A DNA stretch of 52,942 nt from a virus (IMGVR_UViG_2563366966_000001), one strand, 5' to 3'; shown: positions 1 through 46,390, counted from the stretch's first letter. Notes: generated by a model from the sequence alone, not told the origin. A program made the numbers and translations.

Positions 1-1284
1 TTACAGACTTCTGGAAGGTTGCGCAGCTCTTACAACACGCGGTTGATCTTCCGCAGCGTCTTCCAGCGCACTTAAATCACGGTCTTTCACCTCTGGCATT
101 TTCAGCGCAGAGATTAAACCAATCACTGAATATGCCATGATCATAATGGCGATCGGATACCAGGATTCCGTCATGGTGCAGAAAATACCCGCCAGGATAG
201 GACCAAAACCGGAAGCGATAAGACCACCAATTTCTTTAGAAATAGCCATCCGGGTAAAGCGGTTTTTACAGCCGAACATTTCTGCCATGGTAATGTTTTC
301 CAGAGCAAATAATCCCAGCACCGCACAGTTATGAATCACAATCAGTGCAACCATAATGGTGCTCGGGGCATAGCTTTTATCTACAATGATAGAAAGCATT
401 GGCCATGCCAGCACAATCGCGGAGGTATTCATAATAATATACGGGATCCGGCGACCAATTTTATCGGATAACCAACCAAGGAACGGAATGGTCATAAAGC
501 CGAGAATCGAACTGATCATCAATGCATCTGTTGGAATTGCTTTGTTAAACAATAACGTCTGCACTAAATAGCCTGCAAGGAAAGTCTGAATTAACCCGGA
601 GTTACCCGCCTGACCAAAACGCAGCCCTGTTGCCAGCCAGAAGGATTTGCTCTGGAACATGCTACCAGCAGGTGCAGGTTTTGCTGTCGGTTGGTTACTG
701 TCGTTAACCTTCTCAAAGACCGGGCTTTCTTTCAGATTCATACGCAACCAGATAGCAAAGACCATCACGACAACACTCGCCAGGAACGGTATACGCCATC
801 CCCACGCCAGCAGTTCCTCTTTACTGAGAATGAAGAACATAAAGGCCCAGATTGCCGTTGCGCTCAAGGTTCCGCAGTTAGTTCCCATAGCCACAAATGA
901 GGAGATAATTCCGCGCTTACCTTTTGGCGCATATTCCGCCAGCATCGTACCGGCACCGGAAATTTCCGCACCTGCACCCAACCCCTGAATAATACGCAAC
1001 GTCACCAGCAAGATGGGTGCAAAAACACCAATCTGTGCATAGGTCGGTAACACACCAATTAAGGTGGTACAGATCCCCATCATGGTGATGGTAATAAAGA
1101 GCACTTTTTTACGCCCTATTCTGTCGCCCATTTTGCCGAAAATAAATGCTCCGACAATACGCGCCACATAACCTGCACCGTAGGTTCCCATTGCCAGAAT
1201 TAACGCCATTGCCGTTGATGATTCAGGAAAAAATATTTCATGAAACACTAACGCTGCGCCGAGCGAATATAACTGGAAATCCAT
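1..1284 (-). CDS. ydfJ: MFS-family metabolite transporter (YdfJ-like); N-terminus apparently replaced at the prophage junction
   Basis: 427-aa ORF with multiple hydrophobic helices and the MFS loop motif G-D-R-I-G-R-K-K after TM2; from memory of ShiA/ProP-type homologs about 30 N-terminal residues are missing, and an in-frame stop lies 2 codons upstream of the ATG. Confidence 0.85.
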   Translation of the reverse strand: MDFQLYSLGAALVFHEIFFPESSTAMALILAMGTYGAGYVARIVGAFIFGKMGDRIGRKKVLFITITMMGICTTLIGVLPTYAQIGVFAPILLVTLRIIQGLGAGAEISGAGTMLAEYAPKGKRGIISSFVAMGTNCGTLSATAIWAFMFFILSKEELLAWGWRIPFLASVVVMVFAIWLRMNLKESPVFEKVNDSNQPTAKPAPAGSMFQSKSFWLATGLRFGQAGNSGLIQTFLAGYLVQTLLFNKAIPTDALMISSILGFMTIPFLGWLSDKIGRRIPYIIMNTSAIVLAWPMLSIIVDKSYAPSTIMVALIVIHNCAVLGLFALENITMAEMFGCKNRFTRMAISKEIGGLIASGFGPILAGIFCTMTESWYPIAIMIMAYSVIGLISALKMPEVKDRDLSALEDAAEDQPRVVRAAQPSRSL

Positions 1285-1888
1285 AATTCACAGGTGTTTT
1301 TTCCCATCCTGTGGTTTCCTTGGCGTTTTCTAGGTTTTTTCAGATAGTTGCATTTTTTTAAAAAGCATCCTAAGTTCGATCTCAGTGTCTATCTGGGGCC
1401 TATTTCTGTCCCATATATGCCCCAAAAAAACTCCCCAACAGATAAGTAGTTTTTTCATGGATTTATGCGTAAAATCAAGAACGGCTGGAAATCATTCAAT
1501 ACTCACACTATCGAAAAATTTACCAGCCAATCGCAGCACGTTCTTGCATAAGGCGTGTCTGCGGTTTTTCAACTATTCAGATACATCACTCCCATCACAT
1601 TCATTCCTCCGCATCAAAGGCATATAGGCTATATCACCTTGATATTTTTCTTTTTCAGATAAAAACTGTTATCTATGTATACTTTTAAACCCAATCCGTG
1701 TAGAGTCTCTGCATAAGATAGTTTGCAGTTGCCGCTTCAGCTTGCGCCATAAACCGCCTGATTTTTGCTGCCACCTGTTAGCATTCCTGTATACCTGAAA
1801 CGACAATGTTTATCTACGAACTTTAAGAACACCCAAGATAAAAATTGTCAACTATATCATATATAACACATTACTAATTCGAGGCTAT

Positions 1889-2002
1889 ATGAACAGCATA
1901 CTGATAATCACATCTCTCCTTATCATATTCAGCATTTTTAGTCATGCCCTAATAAAATTAGGGATTGGCATATCCAATAACCCAGACAAAACCGATGTAT
2001 AA
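1889..2002 (+). CDS. Candidate small hydrophobic protein (37 aa, one predicted TM helix)
   Basis: ATG at 1889 preceded by GAGG 5 nt upstream; translation [37 protein letters not shown]; not in ORF track because under 60 aa. Confidence 0.35.
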
Positions 2003-2070
2003 GTCAACATATCCTGAATCAGACATACAATATCGCAATGAAAATCAATAATATTTTAAGGAATATCTTC

Positions 2071-2304
2071 ATGAAATCAAAAGACACCCTAAAGTGGTTC
2101 CCTGCGCAGCTTCCTGAAGTAAGAATTATCCTAGGGGATGCTGTAGTGGAAGTAGCAAAACAGGGAAGACCTATCAATACCAGAACATTGCTTGATTACA
2201 TTGAAGGAAACATAAAGAAAAAATCATGGCTGGATAACAAAGAATTATTACAAACAGCGATATCAGTTCTTAAAGACAACCAAAATTTAAATGGTAAAAT
2301 GTAA
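2071..2304 (+). CDS. ydfK: Cold-shock-associated prophage protein YdfK
   Basis: ORF track 2038..2304; internal ATG at 2071 with AAGGA upstream gives the 77-aa form matching my memory of K-12 YdfK. Confidence 0.8.
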   Translation: MKSKDTLKWFPAQLPEVRIILGDAVVEVAKQGRPINTRTLLDYIEGNIKKKSWLDNKELLQTAISVLKDNQNLNGKM

Positions 2305-2469
2305 TATAATAAACTTACTTTTTTATCATTTTTCCACTTTAACAACATTTTGCTCCACTTTTCCACGACCAAACAACTTGAAATCTGGTTAAAATAACAC
2401 GCAACACTATTCTTCTTCCTTGAGTCCGCCCGGAACTCGAAAAACAAACCGAGTTAAAGCCATTTTTCA

Positions 2470-2483
2470 CAAAATCGATTTTG
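2470..2483. promoter_or_regulatory. Perfect 14-bp palindrome CAAAATCGATTTTG upstream of pin (candidate operator or recombinase site)
   Basis: Exact dyad symmetry read from sequence, about 140 bp upstream of the pin start codon. Confidence 0.3.
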
Positions 2484-2620
2484 GGTCTCACCAAAATTAC
2501 GGGGTTGCATACGCATTCGTTTATTTTCGAACGTGTACATACAAATATGCACAAAAATAATCATAATTATTTTCTGAGATGCATTATGATATGAACACCA
2601 ATTTCGTATAGAGTCTCACT

Positions 2621-3211
2621 ATGTCTCAAATTTTTGCTTACTGTCGGATATCAACGCTGGATCAGACCACCGAAAATCAACGCCGGGAAATCGAAAGTGC
2701 AGGTTTTAAAATCAAACCTCAGCAAATAATCGAAGAACACATTAGCGGCTCAGCAGCAACCAGTGAGCGTCCTGGTTTTAACCGGTTGCTTGCTCGCCTG
2801 AAATGTGGTGATCAATTGATTGTGACAAAACTGGATCGCCTTGGTTGTAATGCAATGGATATCAGGAAAACAGTGGAACAACTGACCGAAACAGGTATCA
2901 GAGTGCATTGCTTAGCATTGGGGGGCATTGACCTGACCAGTCCAACAGGAAAAATGATGATGCAAGTAATTTCAGCAGTCGCTGAATTTGAACGAGACCT
3001 TTTACTTGAACGCACTCATTCCGGGATAGTAAGAGCCCGCGGCGCAGGGAAACGTTTTGGTCGACCACCTGTGTTAAATGAAGAACAGAAACAGGCGGTA
3101 TTCGAACGAATTAAGTCAGGTGTAAGTATAAGTGCCATTGCCCGGGAATTCAAAACCTCGCGGCAAACCATTTTAAGAGCCAAAGCAAAACTTCAGACAC
3201 CTGACATATAA
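2621..3211 (+). CDS. pin: Serine recombinase, Pin/Gin/Hin-type DNA invertase
   Basis: 196-aa ORF; N-terminal resolvase catalytic motif (YCRISTLDQ) and C-terminal HTH; matches Pin-family invertases from memory. Confidence 0.9.
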
Positions 3212-3308
3212 AAAATAATCTCGGTGTGAGATGCTTTACGTCTTCCAAGCCCCCTTCCTTGCCGTAAATGGAAAGATACATCTAATTATAGAATTTATAT
3301 GTTTTACC

Positions 3309-3884
3309 CTACGGCAGTGCTGGCCATTCAATATCCTGTGCAGTTGACGTATCAACACGGTTCAGCAATACCCGATACTTTTTCCATGCTTCCAGCAACG
3401 AGATTTCTTCCTCCGTTGCAATTTCCAGATCTGCAGCATCCTGAAGCGGCGCAATATGCTCACTGGCTACCTGCATCAGGTTGTTTTTTGTTTCTTCCGC
3501 CTCCCGGATCCGGAACAGTTTTTCTGCTTCCGTATCCTTCACCCAGGCTGTGCCGTTCCACTTCTGAAACTCCCCTTCCGGCGATAACCAGGTAACATTT
3601 TCCGGTAACGGACCGAGTTCAGAAATAAATAACGCGTCGCCGGAAGCCACGTCATAAACCGTTTTACCCCGATGATCTTCAACGAGATGCCACGATGACT
3701 CATCACTGTTGAAAACAGCCACGAAGCCAGCCGGAATATCTGGCGGTGCAATATCGGTACTGTTTGCTGGCAGACCTGTATGAGGCGGAATATATGCATC
3801 ACCTTCACCAATAAATTCATTAGTTCCGGCCAGCAGATTATAAATTTTTATGGTCCGTGGTTGTTCACTCATTCTGAATGCCAT
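3309..3884 (-). CDS. tfa: Tail fiber assembly protein Tfa
   Basis: 191-aa ORF highly similar to lambda Tfa as recalled; immediately downstream of stf. Confidence 0.9.
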
Positions 3885-35257: not shown

Positions 35258-35413
35258 TTACTCCTCAGGTTCGTAAGCTGTGAAGACAGCGACCTCCGTC
35301 TGGCCGGTTCGGATTCGTACCTCGCAGAGGTCTTTCCTCGTTACCAGTGCCGTCACTATGACGGTTAAACAGATGACGATCAGGGCGATTAACATCGCCT
35401 TTTGCTGCTTCAT
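35258..35413 (-). CDS. hokD: Hok-family membrane toxin HokD (RelF)
   Basis: 51-aa ORF not in track; translation MKQQKAMLIALIVICLTVIVTALVTRKDLCEVRIRTGQTEVAVFTAYEPEE; immediately downstream of relE. Confidence 0.9.
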   Translation of the reverse strand: MKQQKAMLIALIVICLTVIVTALVTRKDLCEVRIRTGQTEVAVFTAYEPEE

Positions 35414-35484
35414 AGCCTGCTTCTCCTGTCAACGCAAAGCAGAAGTGTCACCTTCGGTGCGAAACAGAGATGTCATGCTTTGGT

Positions 35485-35772
35485 TCAGAGAATGCGTTTG
35501 ACCGCCTCGCTATATACTTCCGAGCGTTCTCTTTTCCCAACAGAAATCACGAAAACGACAACTTTCTCGTCTATAACCTGGTATACAAGGCGATAGCCTG
35601 AAGACCGGAGCTTAATCTTGTAACAATCAGGCATACCACGGAGCTTGTTTGCTTCAATCCGGGGTGACTCAAGTACTTCAACCAGCTTCTTTTTCAACTG
35701 TTCACGTACCGTCGAGCCCAGCTTTCGCCATTCCTTTAGTGCCCGCTCGTCAAAATCCAGAAAATACGCCAT
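35485..35772 (-). CDS. relE: mRNA interferase toxin RelE
   Basis: 95-aa ORF matching RelE. Confidence 0.95.
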   Translation of the reverse strand: MAYFLDFDERALKEWRKLGSTVREQLKKKLVEVLESPRIEANKLRGMPDCYKIKLRSSGYRLVYQVIDEKVVVFVISVGKRERSEVYSEAVKRIL

Positions 35773-36011
35773 CAGAGTTCATCCAGCGTCACACGTACTG
35801 GCTTAGGATTACGAAGCCGTTCTTTCACTATCTCCACAAGTTCAGCATCTTCATCACTCAGGAGTGTCTGTTTGAACGGCAAGCGTTCATTGTCAGCGAT
35901 ATACTCGAGCATGAGACGAAGCGCTTCAGAAGGAGTTACACCCATTTTTTCAAGCGCGGCGTAAGAACGCGCTTTAAGTTCATCGTCAATACGCAGGTTA
36001 ATGCTACCCAT
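35772..36011 (-). CDS. relB: Antitoxin RelB (RHH)
   Basis: 79-aa ORF matching RelB; overlaps relE start. Confidence 0.95.
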   Translation of the reverse strand: MGSINLRIDDELKARSYAALEKMGVTPSEALRLMLEYIADNERLPFKQTLLSDEDAELVEIVKERLRNPKPVRVTLDEL

Positions 36012-36035
36012 GTCTTACACCTCTTGTAATTACAA

Positions 36036-36341
36036 ATGTCATTACAAGTATCGCACTACAACATGCTTAGGGCAAGTCACGAAGGAAGTCAGAAAGTAGT
36101 CGTAAGAACGGTGATCACTGTCCGCTTTGTGCCAGGAGCAGCCATTGCTAAGTCCATCCTGTATTGTGCAGGTCAGCTCGTTTTTAAAGAGTCCGGCCAT
36201 CATCTTACTGGTACAGACACCATATACTTTGTGACGGTCAGGCTACATATGCACAACTCAACTTATTCATCTATTTTTTGCTTTAGCATGTCAGTGTTGC
36301 TTTCTCGTCGGCGGGTGAGCGGTGACCTGACCTGTCGATAA
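36036..36341 (+). CDS. ydfV: Hypothetical protein YdfV-like
   Basis: 101-aa ORF at the position and size of K-12 ydfV; no independent support for coding. Confidence 0.4.
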   Translation: MSLQVSHYNMLRASHEGSQKVVVRTVITVRFVPGAAIAKSILYCAGQLVFKESGHHLTGTDTIYFVTVRLHMHNSTYSSIFCFSMSVLLSRRRVSGDLTCR

Positions 36342-36493
36342 AGGAACGTAACACGTTTTATGCAACACCCGCATGCGGCAGAAAATTATTGCCGAACGTT
36401 TACCCCTGTCAACAAGCTTTACTTTCTGAGGCGCGCCAGCCCGCGAGGAAAACAATCTGAACATCAAACAATTAATGACACAAGAAATACGAT

Positions 36494-36520
36494 TAAAGAT
36501 TTTTTTGTGCATGCCGATAG
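36494..36520 (+). promoter_or_regulatory. Sigma-28 (FliA) promoter of flxA
   Basis: TAAAGATT-11 bp-GCCGATAG matches the sigma-28 consensus TAAAGTTT-N11-GCCGATAA; 24 nt upstream of the flxA ATG. Confidence 0.75.
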
Positions 36521-36543
36521 TGCTTTTTTAAAAGGAGAAATCT

Positions 36544-36876
36544 ATGTCTGTCACAATTCAGGGAAATACCTCAACCGTTATTTCAAACAACTCCGCCCCG
36601 GAAGGAACATCAGAAATAGCCAAAATCACAAGACAAATTCAGGTGCTGACTGAAAAGCTTGGGAAAATCTCATCGGAAGAGGGGATGACGACACAGCAGA
36701 AAAAAGAAATGGCTGCATTGGTACAGAAGCAAATTGAAAGCCTCTGGGCTCAACTGGAGCAGTTGTTAAGGCAGCAGGCAGAGAAAAAGAATGAAGACGC
36801 GACAGTTCAGCCTGATAAAAAAGAAGAGAAAAAAGACGATACAAATACCGCTGGCACCATTGATATTTACGTCTAA
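36544..36876 (+). CDS. flxA: FliA-regulated protein FlxA
   Basis: 110-aa ORF with AGGAGA RBS, matching FlxA. Confidence 0.85.
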   Translation: MSVTIQGNTSTVISNNSAPEGTSEIAKITRQIQVLTEKLGKISSEEGMTTQQKKEMAALVQKQIESLWAQLEQLLRQQAEKKNEDATVQPDKKEEKKDDTNTAGTIDIYV

Positions 36877-36890
36877 GTGACAGCCGTATT

Positions 36891-36914
36891 GTGGCCCTCA
36901 TCGGGCCACTTTTC
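36891..36914 (+). terminator. Rho-independent terminator of flxA
   Basis: Hairpin GTGGCCC-TCATC-GGGCCAC followed by TTTTCG. Confidence 0.65.
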
Positions 36915-36963
36915 GCCATCAGCCTTTTCTTTAAAGACATATTATCTTTGTATCATTTCTGAT

Positions 36964-38812
36964 AGTTAACATTACAAGATATAAGTAATGGACGCACTCC
37001 CAATTAGTCTATTTAAATCGCCACGAGTTTAACTGACAACCCATGATCAATTATGAATTGCAACTATTTCTGTAGTCACTTTTGTGGGGACAGTCCACAA
37101 AACTGCCAACTTCCGCTTCTTGCTCTTAGCGGACATTAGCATAGGCTATTTACCATAACGCCTCATTACGCGCACCGCCCAGACTGACTCAGCGCGTTTC
37201 TGGCATATCCCCGGTAAAACAAGTAACAAACCACCCGAAAATGAACACCAGAAACGCGACTTAAGAATCTACCCTATGAATGGATATGCACTCAACCGAA
37301 TCGATCTTGGTTTCAATCTTTTTTATCGGGATCAGGCTTCTTTTTAGGTAACTTCGGGGGCTTAACTTGCTGATGACTTTGCGTTCGGCGCGTAAGCCAG
37401 GGATGGTCAGCTTTAGGTTTAACATAGTATTTTGAGCGTAAATCAATACGGGCATTATCCACTCGTTCATGGACACTCTTTTCATCATCCAGTGGTATAG
37501 GCTCCGGGCCATCAACATACTTTTCCCAGCCCAGCGCTTTCCCGTCATACAGAACGTTAATTTCACCGTCAAAGTTCTCGCATACAGTAACAACCGAATG
37601 CCTAAGTCGATATCCCCGGCCCTCACTGCGTACCTGAAACGCACTGCTTTTGTACTGGAAAGTGAGATTTTTAGACAGAACGCGCTTCGCCTGTAGGCTG
37701 AAGATATAACCCAGTTCCTCTTCAGAATGGTGCACATCAAGATGAGCATTATCAGTAGTACGAGGCGACGTAGCGAACCGGTTGTTATAGGCTTCAATAA
37801 AGGTCGGCAACCATGCATTTGCTGTTTCAATATCACTGATATTCTGAAGCCGCATTTCTTTGACCAGCCTGTCCTGTAGTGTCTGATTGGCGCGCTCTAC
37901 CCGCCCTTTTGCCTGCGGGCTGTTGGCATGGATTGGCTCGATGCCCAGTGTCTTTATCGCACGAGTGAACTGGGTCAGCTCACCTTCCCGCTCTGGGTTA
38001 TTTACCCTGAATATACTGTGTCTATCAGAGTAGAGAGCGAGCGGTACGCCATGATCATTAAGGTAACCCCGGAGGGTTTCCATGTAAGCCCGGGTTGTTT
38101 CAGCAGGCACAAAACGCAACGCCATCAACGCACTGGTGGCATCATCAATGAAAACGATCAGTGTACATCTGGGGCCTCGATTTTCAAACCAGTCATGAGG
38201 TGAGCCATCAATCTGGATCAGTTCACCGTAAGATGGTCGTCGCATGCGGCGTTGATATATACGGGCAATTTTACGACGGCGTTCACGCCATAACCCCTCT
38301 TCTATCATCCACTTTCTGAGAGTTTCAACGGATAAAGATAAACCGTGTATCTCGCGCAATTTTTCGCACGCAAACGTAGGTCCAAAATCAGCGTAACGGC
38401 CTTTGAGGAGTGAAATTACTGTTGCTCTGAATTCAGTAGAAAAGGAATTATTAGGACGCTTTCCACGTCGGTGGGAAACCAGACCAGAAGGCCCTTCATT
38501 TCTATACCGTTGCACCAGACGTTTAACCTGCCGAATAGAAATGCCAATGCGTGCCGCAGCTTGTTCCTGAATAATCTGAAGTCGGTGGAGTTCCTTATGA
38601 CTCATCGTAACAGTCTCTTTGATCATGAAAAATCCCCCAGAGAATTGTCTGGGGACATTTTAGAATGGTTCAAAGGGGACATTACAGCTTGGTGTTAACA
38701 ATAGCCTGCTTCTCCGTGCCTTTCGGCACGTAAGAGGCTAACCTACATGTGTCTAGCATGAAATTGGCCTCAGATTAATGTTAAGCGTCTTGCAGGACGC
38801 GTAATGTTAACT
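36964..38812. mobile_element. Possible extent of the IS481-like element, bounded by a 12-bp perfect inverted repeat (AGTTAACATTAC / GTAATGTTAACT)
   Basis: Inverted repeat at 36964..36975 and 38801..38812 flanking the transposase ORF; no target duplication identified, so boundaries are tentative. Confidence 0.3.
37313..38626 (-). CDS. DDE transposase with N-terminal HTH (integrase-core type; IS481-family-like)
   Basis: 437-aa ORF; HTH-like N-terminus (RIGISIRQVKRLVQRY) and integrase-core signatures (D...D...E with GRVERANQTL); no IstB-like partner. Confidence 0.7.
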   Translation of the reverse strand: MIKETVTMSHKELHRLQIIQEQAAARIGISIRQVKRLVQRYRNEGPSGLVSHRRGKRPNNSFSTEFRATVISLLKGRYADFGPTFACEKLREIHGLSLSVETLRKWMIEEGLWRERRRKIARIYQRRMRRPSYGELIQIDGSPHDWFENRGPRCTLIVFIDDATSALMALRFVPAETTRAYMETLRGYLNDHGVPLALYSDRHSIFRVNNPEREGELTQFTRAIKTLGIEPIHANSPQAKGRVERANQTLQDRLVKEMRLQNISDIETANAWLPTFIEAYNNRFATSPRTTDNAHLDVHHSEEELGYIFSLQAKRVLSKNLTFQYKSSAFQVRSEGRGYRLRHSVVTVCENFDGEINVLYDGKALGWEKYVDGPEPIPLDDEKSVHERVDNARIDLRSKYYVKPKADHPWLTRRTQSHQQVKPPKLPKKKPDPDKKD

Positions 38813-38985
38813 GGGGCTTTTCTCTATCTGCCGTTGGTGTCCATGCCCGAGGCAGATAGCCTCAAGCACCCGCAGTCATTCTACTTAACTAAGATTTCCC
38901 CGCAAACCGTTTTTGTCCAGCACAGTAAATATCCAACTAAACCAATGGAGTTCGCTGTATTTACCGCCAGTATTCAATGCACATG

Positions 38986-39000
38986 ACCGCCATGAACACC
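38986..39000. repeat. 15-bp direct repeat ACCGCCATGAACACC, left flank of IS2-like element
   Basis: Identical 15-mer immediately outside both ends of the IS2-like element. Confidence 0.85.
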
Positions 39001-39091
39001 TGAGCTGGCCCCCTGAAATACCAGACAGTAGATGTATCTTAAAATAAGAGATAGGCTTGGATATATGTCTAACACTAGTTCTAATTTTGAG

Positions 39092-39460
39092 ATGGCTGGC
39101 GTTTTGTTAGGAAAAGAGGTGCGTAAACGTAAAACACCTCAGGAAAAAATCGCAATTATTCAACAGACTATGGAGCCGGGCATGACGGTGTCCCACGTGG
39201 CGCGTTTGCATGGAATTCAGCCCAGTCTGTTGTTTAAGTGGAAGAAACAATACCAGGAAGGAAGCCTCACTGCTGTGGCTGCCGGTGAAGACGTTGTTCC
39301 TGCTTCTGAACTGGCCGCTGCAATAAAGCAGATTAATCAGCTTCAGCGTTTACTGGGTAAGAAAACCATGGAAGTTGAGATCCTCAAAGAAGCGGTGGAG
39401 TATGCACAATCGCGAAAATGGATAGCGCATGTGCCCTTGTTACCTTCGGACAAGGAATAG
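39092..39460 (+). CDS. IS2-type OrfA (InsC-like, HTH)
   Basis: Similarity to IS2 InsC ([28 protein letters not shown]); ATG at 39092 chosen by alignment to InsC. Confidence 0.75.
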
Positions 39461-40299
39461 CCCCGGTAAGCCGTGTTCTGGGCGTGTCACGTGCGCAGTT
39501 AACATTACGGATGAAGGCATCTGATAACAAGCCAGATAAACGGCGTCAGAGGCGCGATGAGGCTGCGGATGCAGAAGTCTTATCGCGCATCCTTGATATC
39601 ATTGGCGATATGCCAGCATACGGGTATCGCCGTGTCTGGGCGATACTCAGGCGGCAGTCCCGAAATGAAGGACTACCGTTCGTGAATGCAAAGCGTGTTT
39701 ACCGGATAATGAGCGAAAATAGTCTGTTGTTGTTACATGACAAACCATCACGACGGCAGCGGGAACATAAAGGCCGAATATCGGTGAAGGAAAGCGACCA
39801 GCGTTGGTGTTCCGATGGCTTTGAGTTCGGTTGCGATGATGGCGAAAAACTGCGTGTTACGTTCGTCCTGGACTGTTGCGATCGTGAAGCCATAGACTGG
39901 GCCGCAAGCACGGGAGGTTACGATAAAGCGACAGTGCAGGATGTGATGTTAGGAGCGATAGAAAAACGCTTTGGCGATAAAGTACCGGAACAGTCCATCC
40001 AGTGGCTGACAGATAACGGTTCAGCGTACAGAGCGCATGAAACACGGCAGTTCGCCAGAGAGCTGAATCTGAAGCCCTGCACAACGGCAATCAGTAGCCC
40101 TCAGAGTAATGGAATGGCAGAACGGTTCGTGAAAACGATGAAGGAAGACTACATCGCGTTCATGCCGAAACCGAATGTAAGAACGGCATTGCATAACCTT
40201 GCAGTGGCGATCGAGCATTACAATGAAAACCATCCGCATAGTGCGTTGGGTTATCGCTCTCCGCGAGAATATCGACGTCAGCGGGTAATGTTAACTTAA
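39418..40299 (+). CDS. IS2-type OrfB (InsD-like DDE transposase catalytic domain)
   Basis: 293-aa ORF similar to IS2 InsD; likely expressed as an OrfAB fusion by frameshifting. Confidence 0.75.
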
Positions 40300-40530
40300 G
40301 ATACAACCCCTGTCTGGAAATAAGGGGGCAAGAACAACCGCCATGAACACCCCTAAAAAAAGGGCATTTATATATCCAAATATTAATATCAAAACATCAA
40401 CTTTTTCCATATACCTTGCTGTGAAGATGATGGGCATACATGATGCGAACAACCAGAACGCAACAAACAAAAACTGCAATGCGTTTTTCATTATTCCTCC
40501 TACAATCAATGTGCAATTACATTTAAACAC
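40291..40530 (-). CDS. Small hydrophobic protein whose 3-prime end is replaced by IS2-like sequence
   Basis: ORF of 79 aa; the last 14 codons lie inside the IS; removing the IS and one repeat copy restores a 72-aa ORF ending MCIEYWR. Confidence 0.4.
40337..40351. repeat. 15-bp direct repeat ACCGCCATGAACACC, right flank of IS2-like element
   Basis: Identical 15-mer immediately outside both ends of the IS2-like element. Confidence 0.85.
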
Positions 40531-40745
40531 ACCTCAATTTGGCCGGACATATAAATATCTAAACCAGAAAAAATCACTTACATAGCGTTACAAACTCTTT
40601 AGTCTAAAGGTTCATCGTAAAACATTCCCCATACTTATCAGTCCGTTCCGCGCCAGGTAGCTCATTGCCTTATCTGGCAACCTGTAATCAGGTTTCCGCT
40701 TTTTCAGTTGGCTGGTCGTTTAACCGACATAGTTAATCCATTAAT

Positions 40746-41033
40746 CTAGTTGCCGGATGTTGGTGGATTTTCGCGTTTTAGTTGTTCATAAAAGTGCACA
40801 GCTTTAACCAGTTCTTCTGATGTAACTGGGACTGGTGAGGCAGTGAATAAGGCCTGAATTTGATAGTTCGGCCTGTCGTTACAATCCTCTTTTTTCGGTA
40901 CATATTTCCAGTCACCAGACCACTACTTCCCCTGAAAGTCCGTAACGCCTTTTTTCACGTAGCGATATCGCCATGCCACTGGTTTTGCTTGCCCCGCCGT
41001 TTCATGCCCTTCCTGATAATTAATCTCGCTCAT
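40746..41033 (-). pseudogene. Decayed ORF with in-frame amber codon (36 codons, TAG at 40923..40925, then 58 more codons)
   Basis: Translation MSEINYQEGHETAGQAKPVAWRYRYVKKGVTDFQGK-stop-WSGDWKYVPKKEDCNDRPNYQIQALFTASPVPVTSEELVKAVHFYEQLKRENPPTSGN. Confidence 0.3.
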
Positions 41034-41165
41034 TCATCGCCCCACTCATCACAATATGCTTCGACCGGAGTTTTTCCCGCTTCATAGTCATCACGCTAGG
41101 ATTCGACATCAGCAGCACTTCCACCGCGTAACTCACCATAGTCCATTAATAGTTCATCCCGCTCT

Positions 41166-41173
41166 TCAAAACT
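41166..41173. repeat. Target site duplication TCAAAACT (left) of IS66-family element
   Basis: Identical 8-mer at 41166..41173 and 43629..43636 abutting the GTAAGCG termini. Confidence 0.85.
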
Positions 41174-41254
41174 GTAAGCGTCGTCTCAGCACCGTCTGGC
41201 AGATCCTGAAATTCCTGAGAGAATAGTGGACACCAAATATGGTGGACGCAATCC

Positions 41255-41659
41255 ATGAAATCATTAACCGCAGTGCGTAAAAAAAGCCCTAATTATCCCG
41301 TTGAGTTCAAAATCAAAATGGTTGAACTCTCGCATCGACCAGAGATCTCCGTAGCGCAACTCGCTCGTGAGCATGGGATCAACGATAATTTGCTGTTCAA
41401 GTGGCGCCAGTACTGGCGCGAAGGAAAACTACGTCCTCCTTCAACAACAGAAAACAACGTGCCTGAGCTGCTCCCGATAACACTTGATGCCGAAGATGTT
41501 GTCCCTACAACCTCCCCCCGGTCACAACCTGTAGCTGCTGCGACACCTGAATCACTCAATATCAGCTGTGAAGTGACGTTCCGGCACGGATCACTCCGTC
41601 TGAATGGTGCCATCAGCGAAAATATCCTGAACCTGCTGATACGGGAGCTCAAACGTTGA
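41255..41659 (+). CDS. IS66-family TnpA (OrfA)
   Basis: 134-aa ORF, first of the IS66 triplet. Confidence 0.85.
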   Translation: MKSLTAVRKKSPNYPVEFKIKMVELSHRPEISVAQLAREHGINDNLLFKWRQYWREGKLRPPSTTENNVPELLPITLDAEDVVPTTSPRSQPVAAATPESLNISCEVTFRHGSLRLNGAISENILNLLIRELKR

Positions 41660-42003
41660 TCCCATTACCATCAGGGACAAAGATCTGGCTGGTCGCTGGC
41701 ATCACCGATATGAGAAACGGCTTCAACGGCCTGGCGGCAAAGGTGCAGACGACGCTGAAAGACGATCCGATGTCAGGTCACGTTTTTATCTTCCGTGGGC
41801 GTAATGGCAGTCAGGTAAAGCTCCTCTGGTCTACCGGCGATGGACTGTGTCTGCTGACCAAACGGCTGGAGCGCGGCCGCTTCGCCTGGCCGTCAGCCCG
41901 GGATGGCAAAGTGTTCCTCACACCGGCACAGCTGGCGATGCTGCTGGAAGGTATCGACTGGCGGCAGCCTAAAAGACTGCTTACGTCCCTGACTATGTTG
42001 TAA
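41656..42003 (+). CDS. IS66-family TnpB (OrfB)
   Basis: 115-aa ORF overlapping tnpA stop. Confidence 0.85.
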   Translation: MIPLPSGTKIWLVAGITDMRNGFNGLAAKVQTTLKDDPMSGHVFIFRGRNGSQVKLLWSTGDGLCLLTKRLERGRFAWPSARDGKVFLTPAQLAMLLEGIDWRQPKRLLTSLTML

Positions 42004-42051
42004 GCCTCTTTATCCTGGTCGACGCTGAATGAGCCTGGTAATATACCCGGT

Positions 42052-43587
42052 ATGAGCAGCTCACTTCCTGACGATATCAATGCACTGAAACGTCTCCTTG
42101 CCGAACAGGAGGCGCTGAACCGTGCCCTGCAGGAAAAGCTGAACGAGCGTGAACGCGAAATAGACCATCTGCAGGCACAGCTGGATAAGCTGCGCCGGAT
42201 GAACTTCGGCAGCCGCTCGGAAAAAGTCTCCCGTCGTATCGCACAGATGGAAGCTGACCTGAAGGCACTTCAGAAAGAAAGTGATACCCTTACCGGTCGG
42301 GTTGACGACCCGGCCGTGCAGCGCCCGCTGCGTCAAACCCGCACCCGCAAACCGTTCCCCGAATCACTCCCCCGCGATGAAAAACGGCTGCTGCCGGCAG
42401 CGTCATGCTGCCCGGAATGTGGAGGCTCGCTGAGCTATCTGGGTGAGGATGCCGCCGAACAGCTGGAGCTGATGCGCAGCGCCTTCCGGGTTATCCGGAC
42501 TGTACGTGAAAAGCATGCCTGTACTCAGTGCGATGCCATCGTGCAGGCCCCCGCGCCTTCACGGCCCATCGAGCGGGGTATCGCAGGACCGGGGCTGCTG
42601 GCCCGCGTGCTGATCTCAAAGTATGCAGAGCACACCCCGCTGTACCGCCAGTCTGAAATGTACGGCCGCCAGGGCGTGGAGCTGAGTCGTTCACTGCTGT
42701 CGGGCTGGGTGGATGCATGCTGCCGGCTACTGTCACCGCTGGAAGAAGCGCTTCAGGACTATGTGCTGACTGACGGTAAGCTCCATGCTGATGACACGCC
42801 TGTCCCGGTGCTGTTGCCAGGCAATAAGAAAACGAAGACCGGGCGGTTATGGACCTACGTTCGTGACGACCGTAACGCCGGGTCAACGCTGGCGCCGGCG
42901 GTGTGGTTCGCTTACAGCCCGGACAGAAAAGGCATCCATCCGCAGACCCATCTTGCGGGGTTCAGTGGTGTACTGCAGGCGGATGCATACGCCGGGTTCA
43001 ACGAGCTGTACCGGGATGGCCGGATAACGGAAGCCGCCTGTTGGGCTCACGCCCGCCGTAAAATCCACGATGTGCACGTTCGCACCCCGTCAGCCCTGAC
43101 GGAGGAAGCGCTGAAACGGATCGGCGAACTGTACGCCATCGAGGCAGAGATAAGGGGAATGACGGCGGAGCAGCGCCTTGCCGAACGTCAGTTGAAAACG
43201 AAACCGCTGCTGAAATCCCTGGAAAGCTGGCTGCGTGAAAAGATGAAAACCCTGTCGCGACACTCAGAACTGGCGAAAGCGTTCGCATACGCCCTGAACC
43301 AGTGGCCGGCGCTGACGTACTATGCAGATGATGGCTGGGCTGAGGCGGACAATAACATCGCTGAAAATGCGTTGCGGATGGTCAGTCTGGGCCGCAAAAA
43401 CTACCTGTTCTTCGGTTCGGATCATGGAGGAGAGCGGGGAGCGCTGCTGTACAGCCTGATCGGGACGTGCAAACTGAACGGAGTGGAGCCAGAAAGCTAC
43501 CTCCGCTATGTCCTTGACGTCATAGCCGACTGGCCGATAAACCGGGTCGGCGAACTGCTCCCCCTGGCGCGTAGCACTGCCGACTGA
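42052..43587 (+). CDS. IS66-family transposase TnpC
   Basis: 511-aa ORF with N-terminal leucine zipper, CxxC zinc-binding motif and DDE domain typical of IS66 transposases. Confidence 0.9.
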
Positions 43588-43628
43588 ATAACACATCCCC
43601 GTCAATACGGTTCTTGCTGCACGCTTAC

Positions 43629-43636
43629 TCAAAACT
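43629..43636. repeat. Target site duplication TCAAAACT (right) of IS66-family element
   Basis: Identical 8-mer at 41166..41173 and 43629..43636 abutting the GTAAGCG termini. Confidence 0.85.
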
Positions 43637-44106
43637 GATGTTATATTTAGCTGAACAAAAATCAGCCACTTTGTTCTTCCTCATCGTCTTTTATTTCGTG
43701 GTATGAGTAATTGCAGTAGTTAAAGAAAATTTCTTATGCTCCGTCATGAATTTCCTCAGGTGTTGCGTCATCGTCCACTTCGAATACATCCTCAAAATCT
43801 CCACCAGCTATTCCCGTTTCAATAATAATTTTGAACTTTCGCATTTCACTACCGCCCTTTCGGGCGGCCTCCTGATGTTCTGAGGGTGCAGAAATCCATC
43901 CGGTTAAGGATTAAATTTTATTTACAGAACTGAATTTAATTATTCAGATATACGTATCTGTAGCCTTACGAATCTACTCACTGGATGCCTCTTTCATAAA
44001 AATAATCCAGTGGGTTTTATCGTTTTTTCCCTGTTCGTTGACAGATAACAGGTTTTCTGTCTGTCAGTGCCAGAATCTGGCTTACCGGTATTTGCGTTTC
44101 ATTCCA

Positions 44107-44463
44107 TTAAAAAATCAGAACGCCGTGCGGCCTCAACACCCGAAAGGCTTCTTTAAATCTCTGTCGCGAATCATCACGCCAGGCATCTTTATTCAGCCGT
44201 CCATATTTCTTTCCCATCCAGGCGTTATCACCAACACTCTCAAGATGCGGAGGGTCTAATACAACCATCGAAAAAGATGCGTCTGCAAATGATAATGCAC
44301 GAAAATCTGCGATAATGTCAGGGCTGATAATCAAGCGTCTCCCATTGCGTAATGTGTATCCTTCTTTTCTGATATCGCTGAATATCGCCCGTTCGTCAGA
44401 CTTATCGAACCAGAACATGCGGCTGCCACAGCACATATCAAGAATGGTTGCCGGTGCACTCAC
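44107..44463 (-). CDS. SAM-dependent methyltransferase-like protein, probably truncated (motif I-like DMCCGSR and motif IV-like DPPH)
   Basis: 118-aa ORF; order motif I then D-P-P-H resembles gamma-class amino-methyltransferases, but the ORF ends about 48 aa after DPPH. Confidence 0.45.
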   Translation of the reverse strand: MSAPATILDMCCGSRMFWFDKSDERAIFSDIRKEGYTLRNGRRLIISPDIIADFRALSFADASFSMVVLDPPHLESVGDNAWMGKKYGRLNKDAWRDDSRQRFKEAFRVLRPHGVLIF

Positions 44464-44882
44464 TGCGCCACGTCCTGAAAATTACCCTGATAGAAAGCCA
44501 GTATGCGCTGCATAACTTCGCTCTTCCGGCACTCGCGACAGATTATGTTTAGGCGACTGTCGTAGCGACGTATTTCTCCGTCAGGTGATGACCAGATAAG
44601 GTCCGGATCAACCACAGCAGGTTTCTTCACCTTTGCCCTCGAGAGTTTTTTGCGGGCGTTTTGCCAGTCCTTACGCGCCTGTTCAGAGGGGAATAACCCG
44701 TAGCCGGAGTTGTATACATCGCCACTGGCTACCAGCTCTCTGGCAAGAACGCTCATCAGATATCTAGTCGCACCTGTTTTAGCTTCCAGTTGCCGTAACG
44801 TCTCACGGCCGCTCTGGCGCACGAGTTCCACCACCTGCCATTTAATTTTTTCCCGCTCTTCTTGTGTAAAAACTTTTGCCAC
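44460..44882 (-). CDS. Hypothetical protein (140 aa), translationally coupled to the methyltransferase-like ORF
   Basis: Stop codon overlaps the downstream start (ATGA-type overlap at 44460..44463); no recognisable domain. Confidence 0.55.
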   Translation of the reverse strand: MAKVFTQEEREKIKWQVVELVRQSGRETLRQLEAKTGATRYLMSVLARELVASGDVYNSGYGLFPSEQARKDWQNARKKLSRAKVKKPAVVDPDLIWSSPDGEIRRYDSRLNIICRECRKSEVMQRILAFYQGNFQDVAQ

Positions 44883-44922
44883 AAGTCCCCCTTAAAATTA
44901 CCTCATGACCTGAAATCAACAC

Positions 44923-45942
44923 TTATCCTCTGAAACCAGGCGGAATTTCTGTATCCGGTTCAGAAATATGATTAACACAACGCTGTACAGGTGAACGTCC
45001 CAGGCGGATGACCAGTTCGTCCCATTTTTCGCGGAGCTTTGACGGGCTCATGATGTTTTTTACCCAGAATGGATCTCGCTGAACCCGACCAAACATTTCG
45101 CAAATTTGTCTGTGGCTTCTGCCATCCAGCATCCGCATTGTGCGCACGTCATTGGCCCAGGCAGTCCAGTTAGGCTCTTTTGGTCGCATGATCTCGCCAT
45201 CATCACTGGCTGCCTGTTCGTAGAGACCCACGATCCGCCCCCAGATCCACTGCGCACACGCCAAATCCTCCCTGCTACCCCACTGGCGTTTTTTCGCACT
45301 AAACACAACCGCGTCGGAGTTCCGGGTTAAAAAATCCTGTTCAGTCGTCTGCGGGTCCGGTTGCGAAGCTTCCGGACGAAAAGTGTTTTTATTCTCTGTA
45401 GTAATCTCTGTTGTATTCTCTGTAAGATCATCAGGCCATTTTGACCCGATGACATTGGGTCGTTTTGAACCAATGGAGCGTTTCATTTTGACCTCTTCCA
45501 TCGTGTCATTTTGACCTGATGGAGCGGCGCATTTTGAACCGATGGATTCGCTCAATTTGCCACCATCTAAAAGCTCGCTCCCATAGTTGATCGTGTAGAA
45601 ATTGGTCATATCGCGCTTTGATTTATTGAGCTTTTCACAACGCAAAAGCCCCAGCGTTTTCAGACTTGCAAACGCGCGCTTTAACGTTGACTCTGACCAG
45701 AATGGGAACTGTTCCAGCCATTGTTCCGTTGTGTTATAAATCCAGCGAACACCATCACATTCCATGCCGGAGTTGGTATCTCTCAACCAGTAGTGCAGTT
45801 GTTGCAAAACAATGGCTTCGTTTAAGCCAATTTTCATTGCCAGCTGCGTGTTTATAACCAGTGGACGTTCAGCAAAAAGAAGGCTCATAATTCCATCCAG
45901 CTTTTTGTTGGTATTGCTGTCGATACGCAAGTTTGAAAGCAA
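44923..45942 (-). CDS. Putative phage replication protein (replisome-organizer-like); start uncertain
   Basis: 339-aa ORF in the position of lambdoid replication genes downstream of the cro-like gene; acidic, Ser/Thr-rich linker. Confidence 0.6.
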   Translation of the reverse strand: MLSNLRIDSNTNKKLDGIMSLLFAERPLVINTQLAMKIGLNEAIVLQQLHYWLRDTNSGMECDGVRWIYNTTEQWLEQFPFWSESTLKRAFASLKTLGLLRCEKLNKSKRDMTNFYTINYGSELLDGGKLSESIGSKCAAPSGQNDTMEEVKMKRSIGSKRPNVIGSKWPDDLTENTTEITTENKNTFRPEASQPDPQTTEQDFLTRNSDAVVFSAKKRQWGSREDLACAQWIWGRIVGLYEQAASDDGEIMRPKEPNWTAWANDVRTMRMLDGRSHRQICEMFGRVQRDPFWVKNIMSPSKLREKWDELVIRLGRSPVQRCVNHISEPDTEIPPGFRG

Positions 45943-46390
45943 TTGCTTTTTCTATAAGTTCGTCAGTTTCACGATCCACTACGGCAGGATCAGCAAAAAG
46001 CAGTCCGGACTCCACCACATCGCCATATTCTTTGTTTAACCCGGCGATCATGCACGTGATGCTTTTTCCGTCAGTAATTTCACGATACAACCTGAAATCA
46101 TTAATCCGGATAGCCTCCATAATTGCAGGCACTAGCGCCGTGAACTTTTCACGCTTATCCCTGGTGTCGATAGCCTTCCAGCGTTCAAATATCTTCACTC
46201 GATTAACGCCAAGCGCTCGCTGATCAATCGCGCCACCTTCATATGTGACACGCTGAACATCGATGTTCGGGCGCTCTTTCAAAGCCCAGAATGCTTCAGT
46301 GATTAATATCGTCGCCTGCTCCTGTGTCATTCCTGGTCGACATATCCAGGCATCCAGAGCCTCACGAGCCTGTTCAGGAGTGATTTTCAT
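45869..46390 (-). CDS. YdaT-like/CII-position protein (173 aa), function unknown
   Basis: First gene after dicC in the rightward-equivalent operon; family assignment from memory only. Confidence 0.5.
   Translation of the reverse strand: MKITPEQAREALDAWICRPGMTQEQATILITEAFWALKERPNIDVQRVTYEGGAIDQRALGVNRVKIFERWKAIDTRDKREKFTALVPAIMEAIRINDFRLYREITDGKSITCMIAGLNKEYGDVVESGLLFADPAVVDRETDELIEKAIAFKLAYRQQYQQKAGWNYEPSFC

Follow-up and report, generated by a model that had tools for sequence, protein, structure and literature searches.

Insertion sequences (IS) of the IS1202 family have TGT...ACA ends and imperfect inverted repeats of 24–26 bp whose inner block is repeated subterminally, and their transposases, of 394–507 amino acids (aa), carry a Q seven residues after the E (PMC10132070). 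In the ISTde1 subgroup the target duplications measure 15–17 bp, and passenger genes were reported in five members only (bioRxiv 10.1101/2022.12.17.520857). ISEsa1 was described as a 1609-bp element with no detectable duplication, and the subgroup with long duplications was left without a reported target (Harmer, Pong and Hall 2023, PMC10132070). The elements called tIS (ISKpn21, ISKpn65 and ISRel10) each hold a single hypothetical passenger open reading frame (ORF); their duplications are 5 bp long, and their insertions lie 5 bp away from dif-like sites (PMC10132070). Here we compare with these elements a predicted transposon that carries the toxin–antitoxin (TA) genes relBE and lies at the start codon of hokD in a viral sequence of 52,942 nucleotides (IMGVR_UViG_2563366966_000001). 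This whole stretch, with positions counted from its first letter, is called the window hereafter.

In the parts of the sources that were retrieved, relBE is described as integrated into hokD (Ramisetty and Santhosh 2016, as cited in PMC6379469), as 'acquired from plasmids' by a vehicle that is not named (Ramisetty and co-workers; PMC6379469, PMC5120126), and as co-transcribed with hokD in the order relB-relE-hokD (Gotfredsen and Gerdes 1998, as cited in PMC5120126). The window is a complete Escherichia coli Qin-type lambdoid prophage in ydfJ, running from the ydfJ remnant to an intact integrase. A first reading of this DNA, made without database searches (the sequence-only reading), had seen an IS landing zone at 36900–44106 with an IS481-like transposase gene, an IS2-like IS3-family element and an IS66-family element. 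Three transposable elements of unrelated families are indeed present in and around this region. We give a probability of about 0.85 to the reading that they would represent three independent transposition events in the accessory slot of a Qin-type prophage, the oldest being an IS1202-family relBE transposon at the hokD start codon.

Boundaries and family of the relBE transposon

The predicted transposon and the features that define it are as follows (IRR and IRL, right and left inverted repeats; tnp, transposase gene).

35427–38700, minus strand: whole IS1202-family (ISEsa1-like) transposon, 3274 bp, in the order IRR-relE-relB-ydfV-flxA-hairpin-cer-like site-tnp-IRL; placed by the empty site in locus L004, the 15-bp duplication and the inverted repeats.
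35258–35413, minus strand: hokD coding sequence, now downstream of relBE; from the ORF list, and annotated as hokD in identical DNA of strain 88-3493.
35412–35426, no strand: target duplication, copy 1, ATAGCCTGCTTCTCC, which provides the Shine-Dalgarno sequence and the AT of the hokD ATG; read directly, single in the L004 empty site.
38701–38715, no strand: target duplication, copy 2, ATAGCCTGCTTCTCC; read directly.
35427–35452, plus strand: IRR, TGTCAACGCAAAGCAGAAGTGTCACC; another subterminal site of ATGTCA type lies about 40 nt inward; conserved beside relE in L013–L030.
38675–38700, minus strand: IRL, TGTTAACACCAAGCTGTAATGTCCCC; a further AATGTCCCC site lies inside; from sequence comparison of the ends.
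38700–38871, minus strand: orphaned sok/hok-mRNA leader (mok start region); Rfam RF01794 (sok), 104 bits versus a gathering score of 59.
37313–38626, minus strand: IS1202-family transposase, 437 aa, with D140, D201, E244 and Q251; from family models and homologue alignment.
35485–36011, minus strand: relE (35485–35772) and relB (35772–36011), the cargo next to the IRR; from the ORF list, annotation and unit alignments.

In strain 2017-01-4CC (L004) the site is empty: hokD is joined directly to the sequence found at window positions 38701–39000, and ATAGCCTGCTTCTCC occurs once. In the window it occurs twice and brackets 3274 bp. This unit starts with TGTCAACGCAAAGCAGAAGTGTCACC and finishes as the complement of TGTTAACACCAAGCTGTAATGTCCCC. 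Its inverted repeats, TGTTAACACC...TGTCCCC versus TGTCAACGCA...TGTCACC, agree at 19 of 26 positions and are of the TGT...ACA type expected of the IS1202 family, and the inner motif is repeated about 40 nt further in at both ends. The duplication of 15 bp falls within the 15–17 bp of the ISTde1-type subgroup.

The insertion point is also marked by the sok match, since the last three positions of the RF01794 model, which are the hok AUG, coincide with the transposon junction. The leader and hokD are contiguous in L004, whereas in the window hokD lies 3.3 kb from the sok match. In-silico removal of the three elements and of one copy of each duplication yields a 70-codon mok-hok ORF, with 98.5% and 92% identity to L004. 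Because of the empty site, the duplication, the inverted repeats, the sok junction and the restored ORF, we take relE, relB, ydfV, flxA, the cer-like site and the transposase gene to be one unit at the hokD start codon; as judged from filled and empty sites, 35427–38700 is a single transposon inserted there.

The transposase scores 456 bits against the NCBIfam model ISNCY_2 (NF033594; cut-off 250) and 125.7 bits against the IS481 model NF033577 (cut-off 224), so the label 'IS481-like' given by the sequence-only reading had to be replaced. As in the IS1202 family, a single DDE transposase of suitable length is present (437 aa, or 446 aa in the undeleted alleles described below), with Q at the seventh position after E. 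The PGAP (Prokaryotic Genome Annotation Pipeline) name of a 98%-identical allele and a conserved block of 1609 bp are the sole pointers to ISEsa1 identity. The boundaries had to be moved as well: the sequence-only reading had placed this element between flxA and the replication module, but flxA, ydfV and relBE lie inside the transposon, which reaches beyond the region first delimited. Its clustering with two further elements, ISEc48 and ISEc22, stood.

It is very unlikely that three plain IS (IS481-like, IS2-like and IS66) were simply gathered here by chance or neutrality, with flxA and relBE as ordinary prophage genes. Two of the three elements are plain IS with normal ends, and the zone tolerates many IS in other strains. 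The first element, however, falls below the IS481 cut-off, and neither an inverted repeat nor a duplication surrounds an element of 1.6 kb. For the IRR of such a plain IS, no convincing match to the IRL was found near 37120 (9–10 of 22–26 positions), and the place is occupied instead by a palindrome containing AATGTCCGC. The duplication and repeats bracket 35427–38700 with flxA and relBE included, and relE, relB, ydfV, flxA and an Xer site all lie between the inverted repeats, which is not the make-up of a simple IS. The L004 empty site and the units at other sites contradict the plain-IS explanation. Moreover, a flxA-bearing unit, 99.4% identical, is found on the E. coli plasmid pSTEC2018_166-c (which carries IncI1-type surface-exclusion genes), where it precedes another hok-family gene with a duplication of CATCGCAGCCCCTCCA.

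Related units, cargo and choice of target

Relatives were scanned in one genome per species, which gave 79 loci. The tnp block (38700 to about 37118, 85–95% identical) and the relBE block recur in Enterobacter, Citrobacter, Kluyvera, Pseudocitrobacter, Huaxiibacter, Superficieibacter, Pantoea and Leclercia. The units in these genera are 4.5–7.3 kb long (3.3–7.3 kb when the window unit is included) and share one architecture of tnp, Xer site, variable cargo, relBE and IRR. The cargo between the two blocks differs; among it are cytochrome b561 with a CDF transporter, insertions of the IS110 and IS30 types, regulators of the LysR type, and TauE. Duplications of 14–16 bp, differing by locus, flank the units in L013, L015, L016, L019, L023, L030, L043 and L094. 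In a relative from Scandinavium hiltneri (L043 5927–10200), about 70% identical and with the same ends and a 15-bp duplication, a TacA-like antitoxin and GNAT toxin replace relBE; this unit also bears GrpB and hexapeptide-transferase genes. A relative in Hahella, with 62% protein identity, is a plain IS of 1449 bp present in at least 10 copies with near-identical ends, and duplications of 15–16 bp were seen in seven of seven copies.

These units bear on a second explanation, in which relBE (with ydfV-flxA) came by another route and an ISEsa1-like IS inserted later beside it, the IRR-like sequence being coincidental or the relic of a second IS in a composite transposon. We consider this highly improbable. 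The unit is a mosaic (the relBE block, 36139–35427, is 89.9–99% identical among units versus about 90% for the tnp block), and the hairpin with AATGTCCGC, which is like a transposase-binding site, could be a decayed inner end. The 15-bp duplication nevertheless flanks the whole unit and neither half of it, and in at least eight units with different cargo relBE abuts the same IRR, with 14–16-bp duplications at unrelated sites. In addition, the distance from the IRR tip to the relE stop codon is only 58 bp, too short to hold an IS relic.

Between tnp and relBE the following features delimit the cargo.

37112–37134, no strand: hairpin closing the conserved tnp block, (AAT)GTCCGCT-N10-AGCGGAC(ATT); from alignments.
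36120–36143, no strand: second hairpin with the same stem, bounding the cargo on the relB side; from alignments.
37148–37176, minus strand: cer-like XerC/XerD core, GGTGCGCGTAA-TGAGGCG-TTATGGTAAAT, just inside the first hairpin; from a pattern search with 0 matches expected by chance.
36124–37138, plus strand: flxA-ydfV cargo module, 1015 bp (ydfV 36036–36341, flxA 36544–36876); from annotation and homologue matches.

The hairpin stem (GTCCGCT...AGCGGAC) resembles the transposase-binding motif AATGTCCCC. The flxA-ydfV module also occurs on its own, next to pao genes in strain YF-1 (L003 3245–4259). The candidate Xer core is kept in all relatives while its central region varies, and the sequence adjoining it (about 37144–37300) is about 75% identical to many plasmids of 2.5–14 kb. 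Its XerD arm TTATGGTAAAT is presumably the same as that of ColE1 cer, with the XerC arm reading GGTGCGCGTAA in the window and, as we take it, GGTGCGTACAA in cer; in L025 and similar relatives both arms are, on the same assumption, identical to those of cer. A second Xer site, as in a dif-type module, was not found in the window within three mismatches. In L026 two Xer sites in direct order (7478 and 8618) surround an insert of 1.1 kb, as expected for Xer-mediated capture.

The ribosome-binding site and start codon of hok-family genes are the site of 11 of about 21 distinct IRL flanks, and the Hok proteins at these sites differ widely. L026, and possibly L029, sits at a hok-type site in the inverse orientation, and the remaining seven or eight flanks lie elsewhere. 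A GCAA-like motif precedes the duplication at most sites, non-hok ones included. The hok association could also descend from one ancient insertion, passed on by inheritance and moved between hok loci through homologous recombination. In several loci, for example L009, L012 and L013, the neighbouring hok-leader DNA is conserved along with the element, and recombination between plasmid and prophage hok loci is possible. We regard this as unlikely. The duplicated targets differ (ATAGCCTGCTTCTCC, CATCGCAGCCCCTCCA, GGAGAAGAAGGCCAT, GATATGCTGACAAA and others), the downstream Hok proteins are strongly different, and the offset to the ATG varies by 1–3 nt; L026 and possibly L029 are in opposite orientation, and the GCAA-like motif lies just outside the duplication at non-hok targets too. 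The comparison of flanks favours, short of proof, a preference of the transposase for hok start codons over inheritance.

The transposase of the window copy bears one real lesion, an in-frame deletion of 27 bp (9 codons) at 38564/38565, near the N-terminus, relative to MEI005, the plasmid copies and most relatives; L013 has SLNRHITQE at this point. As 9 residues of the predicted N-terminal DNA-binding region are gone, the window copy is probably immobile. The PGAP call 'missing C-terminus' was rejected, as homologues of 433–447 aa align end to end with a coverage of 94–100%. PGAP naming tracks the deletion: the deleted allele is called 'ISNCY family' and the undeleted one 'IS1202-like element ISEsa1 family transposase'. 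What PGAP calls 'ydfW' is the final 49 codons of the transposase. E. coli genomes contain one copy of the gene, which in the chromosomal matches listed stands in Qin context with ydfW.

Several points weigh against the transposon as we describe it. The case is built wholly on comparative sequence, and the inverted repeats are imperfect. In all relatives the tnp block ends at the hairpin near 37120, which could be a vestigial IS end. Some hok-associated copies may descend from a single ancestral insertion that recombination then spread, so that the target preference would look stronger than it is, and with its deleted transposase the window copy may never be mobile again. No description of the relBE transposon was found in the literature that could be searched, which did not include ISfinder or the 2016 FEMS paper, so that part of it may already be recorded; the passages retrieved from a 2025–26 hok survey do not mention it.

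We think it somewhat better than an even chance that Enterobacteriaceae harbour a wider group of IS1202-type transposons that home to the start-codon region of hok-family genes. Next to the IRR they would always have a TA pair, mostly relBE but TacA/GNAT in the case of one distant member, and inside they would have a cer-like Xer site and an exchange slot bounded by hairpins.

ISEc48, ISEc22 and the accessory slot

The other two elements, and the remaining features of the region, are listed below.

39001–40336, plus strand: ISEc48 (IS3 family, IS2 group), 1336 bp, with orfA at 39032–39460 and orfB at 39418–40299; from alignment to strain 88-3493.
38986–39000 and, second copy, 40337–40351, no strand: 15-bp duplication ACCGCCATGAACACC of ISEc48; single in 88-3493.
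41174–43628, plus strand: ISEc22 (IS66 family), 2455 bp, with tnpA at 41255–41659, tnpB at 41656–42003 and tnpC at 42052–43587; from family models and other copies.
41166–41173 and, second copy, 43629–43636, no strand: 8-bp duplication TCAAAACT of ISEc22; read directly and from the empty site.
40612–41033, minus strand: decayed ORF, hypothetical, with a frameshift and an internal stop, in the interval from ISEc48 to ISEc22; annotated by PGAP in identical DNA, coordinates mapped.
43662–43844, minus strand: DUF7167-family pseudogene (internal stop); PGAP annotation of identical DNA.
44107–44463, minus strand: class I S-adenosylmethionine-dependent methyltransferase gene, adjoining the right limit of the landing zone as first drawn; from the ORF list and annotation.

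ISEc48 has ends of the TG...CA type, TGAGCTGG...CAAGAACA, and copies elsewhere have the same ends with an identity of up to 100%; PGAP names the 100%-identical copies ISEc48 with 'programmed frameshift'. Its OrfB scores 207 bits against the IS3 model (cut-off 160), which places it in the IS3 family. Both proteins fall below the cut-offs of the IS2 subfamily models (OrfA 197 versus 229, OrfB 419 versus 597), so the element is not IS2 itself. Exact 15-bp duplications flank the copy in the window and four of four other copies at unrelated sites (L005–L008), a length that departs from the 3–5 bp usual in the IS3 family. No literature on 15-bp duplications of ISEc48 was found. The insertion splits an unannotated 72-codon ORF (38961–39000 and 40352–40530, minus strand) with two hydrophobic stretches, membrane-like in character and without a Pfam match, which is whole in 88-3493 and 2017-01-4CC.

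ISEc22 has the ends GTAAGCG at 41174 and CGCTTAC at 43628, and other copies give the same ends. Its genes score above the cut-offs of the NCBIfam and Pfam models of the IS66 family, except that TnpA is under that of NF038385 (and over that of NF047595). It lies in the homologue of a 58-codon ORF of L004, and its site is empty in MEI005. The tnpC gene (42052–43591) has 511 codons and all IS66 Pfam domains. PGAP flags a frameshift near its 3' end; because the 88-3493 copy and another ISEc22 copy carry the same flag, it says little about activity. ISEc48 and ISEc22 match other copies at 99–100% identity, each with the gene layout of its family, which for ISEc48 is orfA/orfB with a programmed -1 frameshift and for ISEc22 tnpA-tnpB-tnpC. 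Ends, duplications and models thus bear out the IS2-like and IS66-family elements of the sequence-only reading, and the decayed or interrupted small ORFs that it had noted between the elements were also seen.

Each of the three insertions can be compared with an uninterrupted counterpart, as had been proposed: the pre-insertion sequence was rebuilt, and empty sites were found in L004, MEI005 and 88-3493. The genomes form a nested series in which L004 has none of the elements, L002 the transposon only, L001 the transposon and ISEc22, and the window all three. Because the empty-site genomes are nested in this way, we take the three insertions to be independent. The hokD-IRR-relE junction is present in 1165 of 5426 complete E. 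coli genomes (about a fifth), with homology ending at 35427 in the other genomes sampled, and about 780 genomes retain the transposase gene. ISEc22 at this site is common to 48 genomes, and ISEc48 at this site was found in 0 of the 5,426.

An assembly artefact, or one composite unit of the three elements, is barely credible. We found nothing that supports it. Each element has its own inverted repeats and its own duplication, and genomes lacking each are known, as the sequence-only reading had supposed in treating the elements as unrelated. Two of the three junction pairs occur at 100% identity in 48 independent complete genomes, and the duplication of ISEc48, the third element, has the same length of 15 bp in the four other copies. 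A composite transposon built of the three IS was rejected, since every one of them comes with a duplication and an empty site of its own.

The order of events suggested by the nested series is as follows. In the first and oldest, the IS1202-family transposon 35427–38700 would have entered the hokD start codon. Its DDE transposase would bind the inverted repeats with their TGT ends, as well as the AATGTCCCC-type sites in subterminal position, and cut with a stagger of 15–16 bp, as suggested by the duplications. The insertion would have parted hokD from its mok/sok leader, with the duplicated 15 bp rebuilding the Shine-Dalgarno sequence and the AT of the ATG, and hokD would then have been read from the relBE promoter as part of the known relBEF operon. 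ISEc22 would have entered a decayed small ORF in the second event. In the third, which is strain-specific, ISEc48 would have inserted in the 72-codon ORF 115 bp upstream of the orphaned sok region. The insertions of ISEc22 and ISEc48 would persist because the slot is dispensable.

K-12 has lost most of this region. Window position 37497 is joined there to 46111, a clean deletion of 37498–46110 with 2 bp of microhomology, which took the IRL, sok and two thirds of the transposase gene, together with the accessory slot, the genes for the methyltransferase, DUF977 and replication, and a part of ydaT. Only the relBE-flxA half of the transposon is retained. This deletion accounts for the two stumps in K-12, 'ydfW' at the tail of the transposase and the YdaT fragment 'ydfX', and for the element having been overlooked there.

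The surrounding prophage is well matched in strain 88-3493, which corresponds to window bases 1–31162 and 30500–39000/40337–50500 at 99.9–100% identity. In the left part its gene order is ydfJ', pinQ, tail and head genes, lysis genes, cspB/F, Q, ydfU, rem, hokD, relE, relB, ydfV and flxA; to the right of the IS region follow the methyltransferase, DUF977, a replication gene, a ydaT-like gene, dicC/dicA, dicB and an exonuclease. The right end of the window holds an intact tyrosine integrase gene (431 aa). Unlike K-12 Qin, the window prophage has a full set of head, tail, lysis and replication genes along with the intact integrase. Insertions aside, it may still be inducible.

No transposase annotation was found in the prophage outside 35.4–43.6 kb. 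The three target sites fall within 1107 bp of the 45.8-kb pre-insertion prophage, for which the post hoc probability is about 0.0017 under three uniformly placed points. The slot that runs from the hok leader to the DUF977 gene is occupied in other Qin-type prophages by a RelA/SpoT-domain gene (L095 2769–3794) or by KwaB-like and QueH genes (L096 6443–8956), and DUF4209, DUF262 and deaminase genes are annotated under comparable matches (hits H182–H187). This slot looks like a defence/moron hotspot. Additional IS in this prophage region of other strains are IS1A, IS1B, ISKpn26, ISCro1, IS3, ISEc12, an IS481-family element, IS200C and ISApl1.

These comparisons support the view that the nin-equivalent slot is dispensable, variable and a site of cargo exchange. 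The dispensable character proposed for the zone agrees with the absence of 37498–46110 from K-12 and with the other accessory genes and IS of other strains. The idea of a landing zone holds insofar as it means a dispensable exchange slot, but does not fit the first element, whose placement is best explained by the hok start-codon preference. The IS cluster as such is ordinary: IS piling up where a prophage has an accessory slot that is variable and can be dispensed with.

Implications and comparison with known systems

K-12 relBE is the founding member of a major TA family, and earlier descriptions treat hokD/relF as a hok locus that underwent rearrangement. A relBE-carrying IS1202-family transposon matters to research on both toxin–antitoxin systems and IS elements. 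If the wider group of such transposons is real, the K-12 relBEF operon with ydfV, flxA and the 'ydfW' pseudogene is the half-deleted fossil of one of them. As transposon cargo, relBE would offer a concrete mechanism for the spread of chromosomal TA modules. The transposon would split hok from sok and at the same time regenerate the hok ribosome-binding site. The IS1202 family would be extended to cargo transposons with a hok-leader target and an internal Xer site. The outer end of ISEsa1 would then have been placed too far in, which would explain why no target duplication was found and may settle the point. Several annotations would be corrected: ydfW is the tail of the transposase, the 'ISNCY transposase, missing C-terminus' is full length bar the 9-codon deletion, and flxA and ydfV are transposon cargo and not phage genes.

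Among the three elements, ISEc22 is typical of the IS66 family in its 8-bp duplication and its tnpA-tnpB-tnpC layout. The hokD locus has a precedent: Pedersen and Gerdes reportedly described in 1999 that chromosomal hok loci of K-12 are inactivated by IS or rearrangement. The present locus resembles these inactivated loci in that hokD is without its mok/sok leader, the 70-codon ORF having been cut to 51 codons by the relBE integration. In contrast to earlier accounts of relBE at hokD, the probable vehicle, its ends, the duplication, the orphaned sok and the masking deletion in K-12 are now defined. The candidate Xer site shares with ColE1 cer and the pdif modules of Acinetobacter an 11-7/8-11 XerC/XerD core and plasmid-like flanks, but in the window it sits inside a DDE transposon.

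Like the tIS, the relBE transposon is of the IS1202 family and carries its passengers between the transposase gene and the IRR. It differs from them in its duplications of 15–16 bp, in its cargo of relBE and exchangeable genes, and in having the Xer site inside and not as a target. With the ISTde1-type members of the family it shares the ends, the repeats, the DDE transposase with its Q and the 15–16-bp duplications. A typical member of the family measures 1.3–2.0 kb, whereas the relBE units reach 3.3–7.3 kb and have an internal Xer site, a cargo slot and a TA pair. In contrast to ISEsa1 as described, the relBE units show duplications when their end is set on the far side of relBE, and they are most often inserted at hok start codons.

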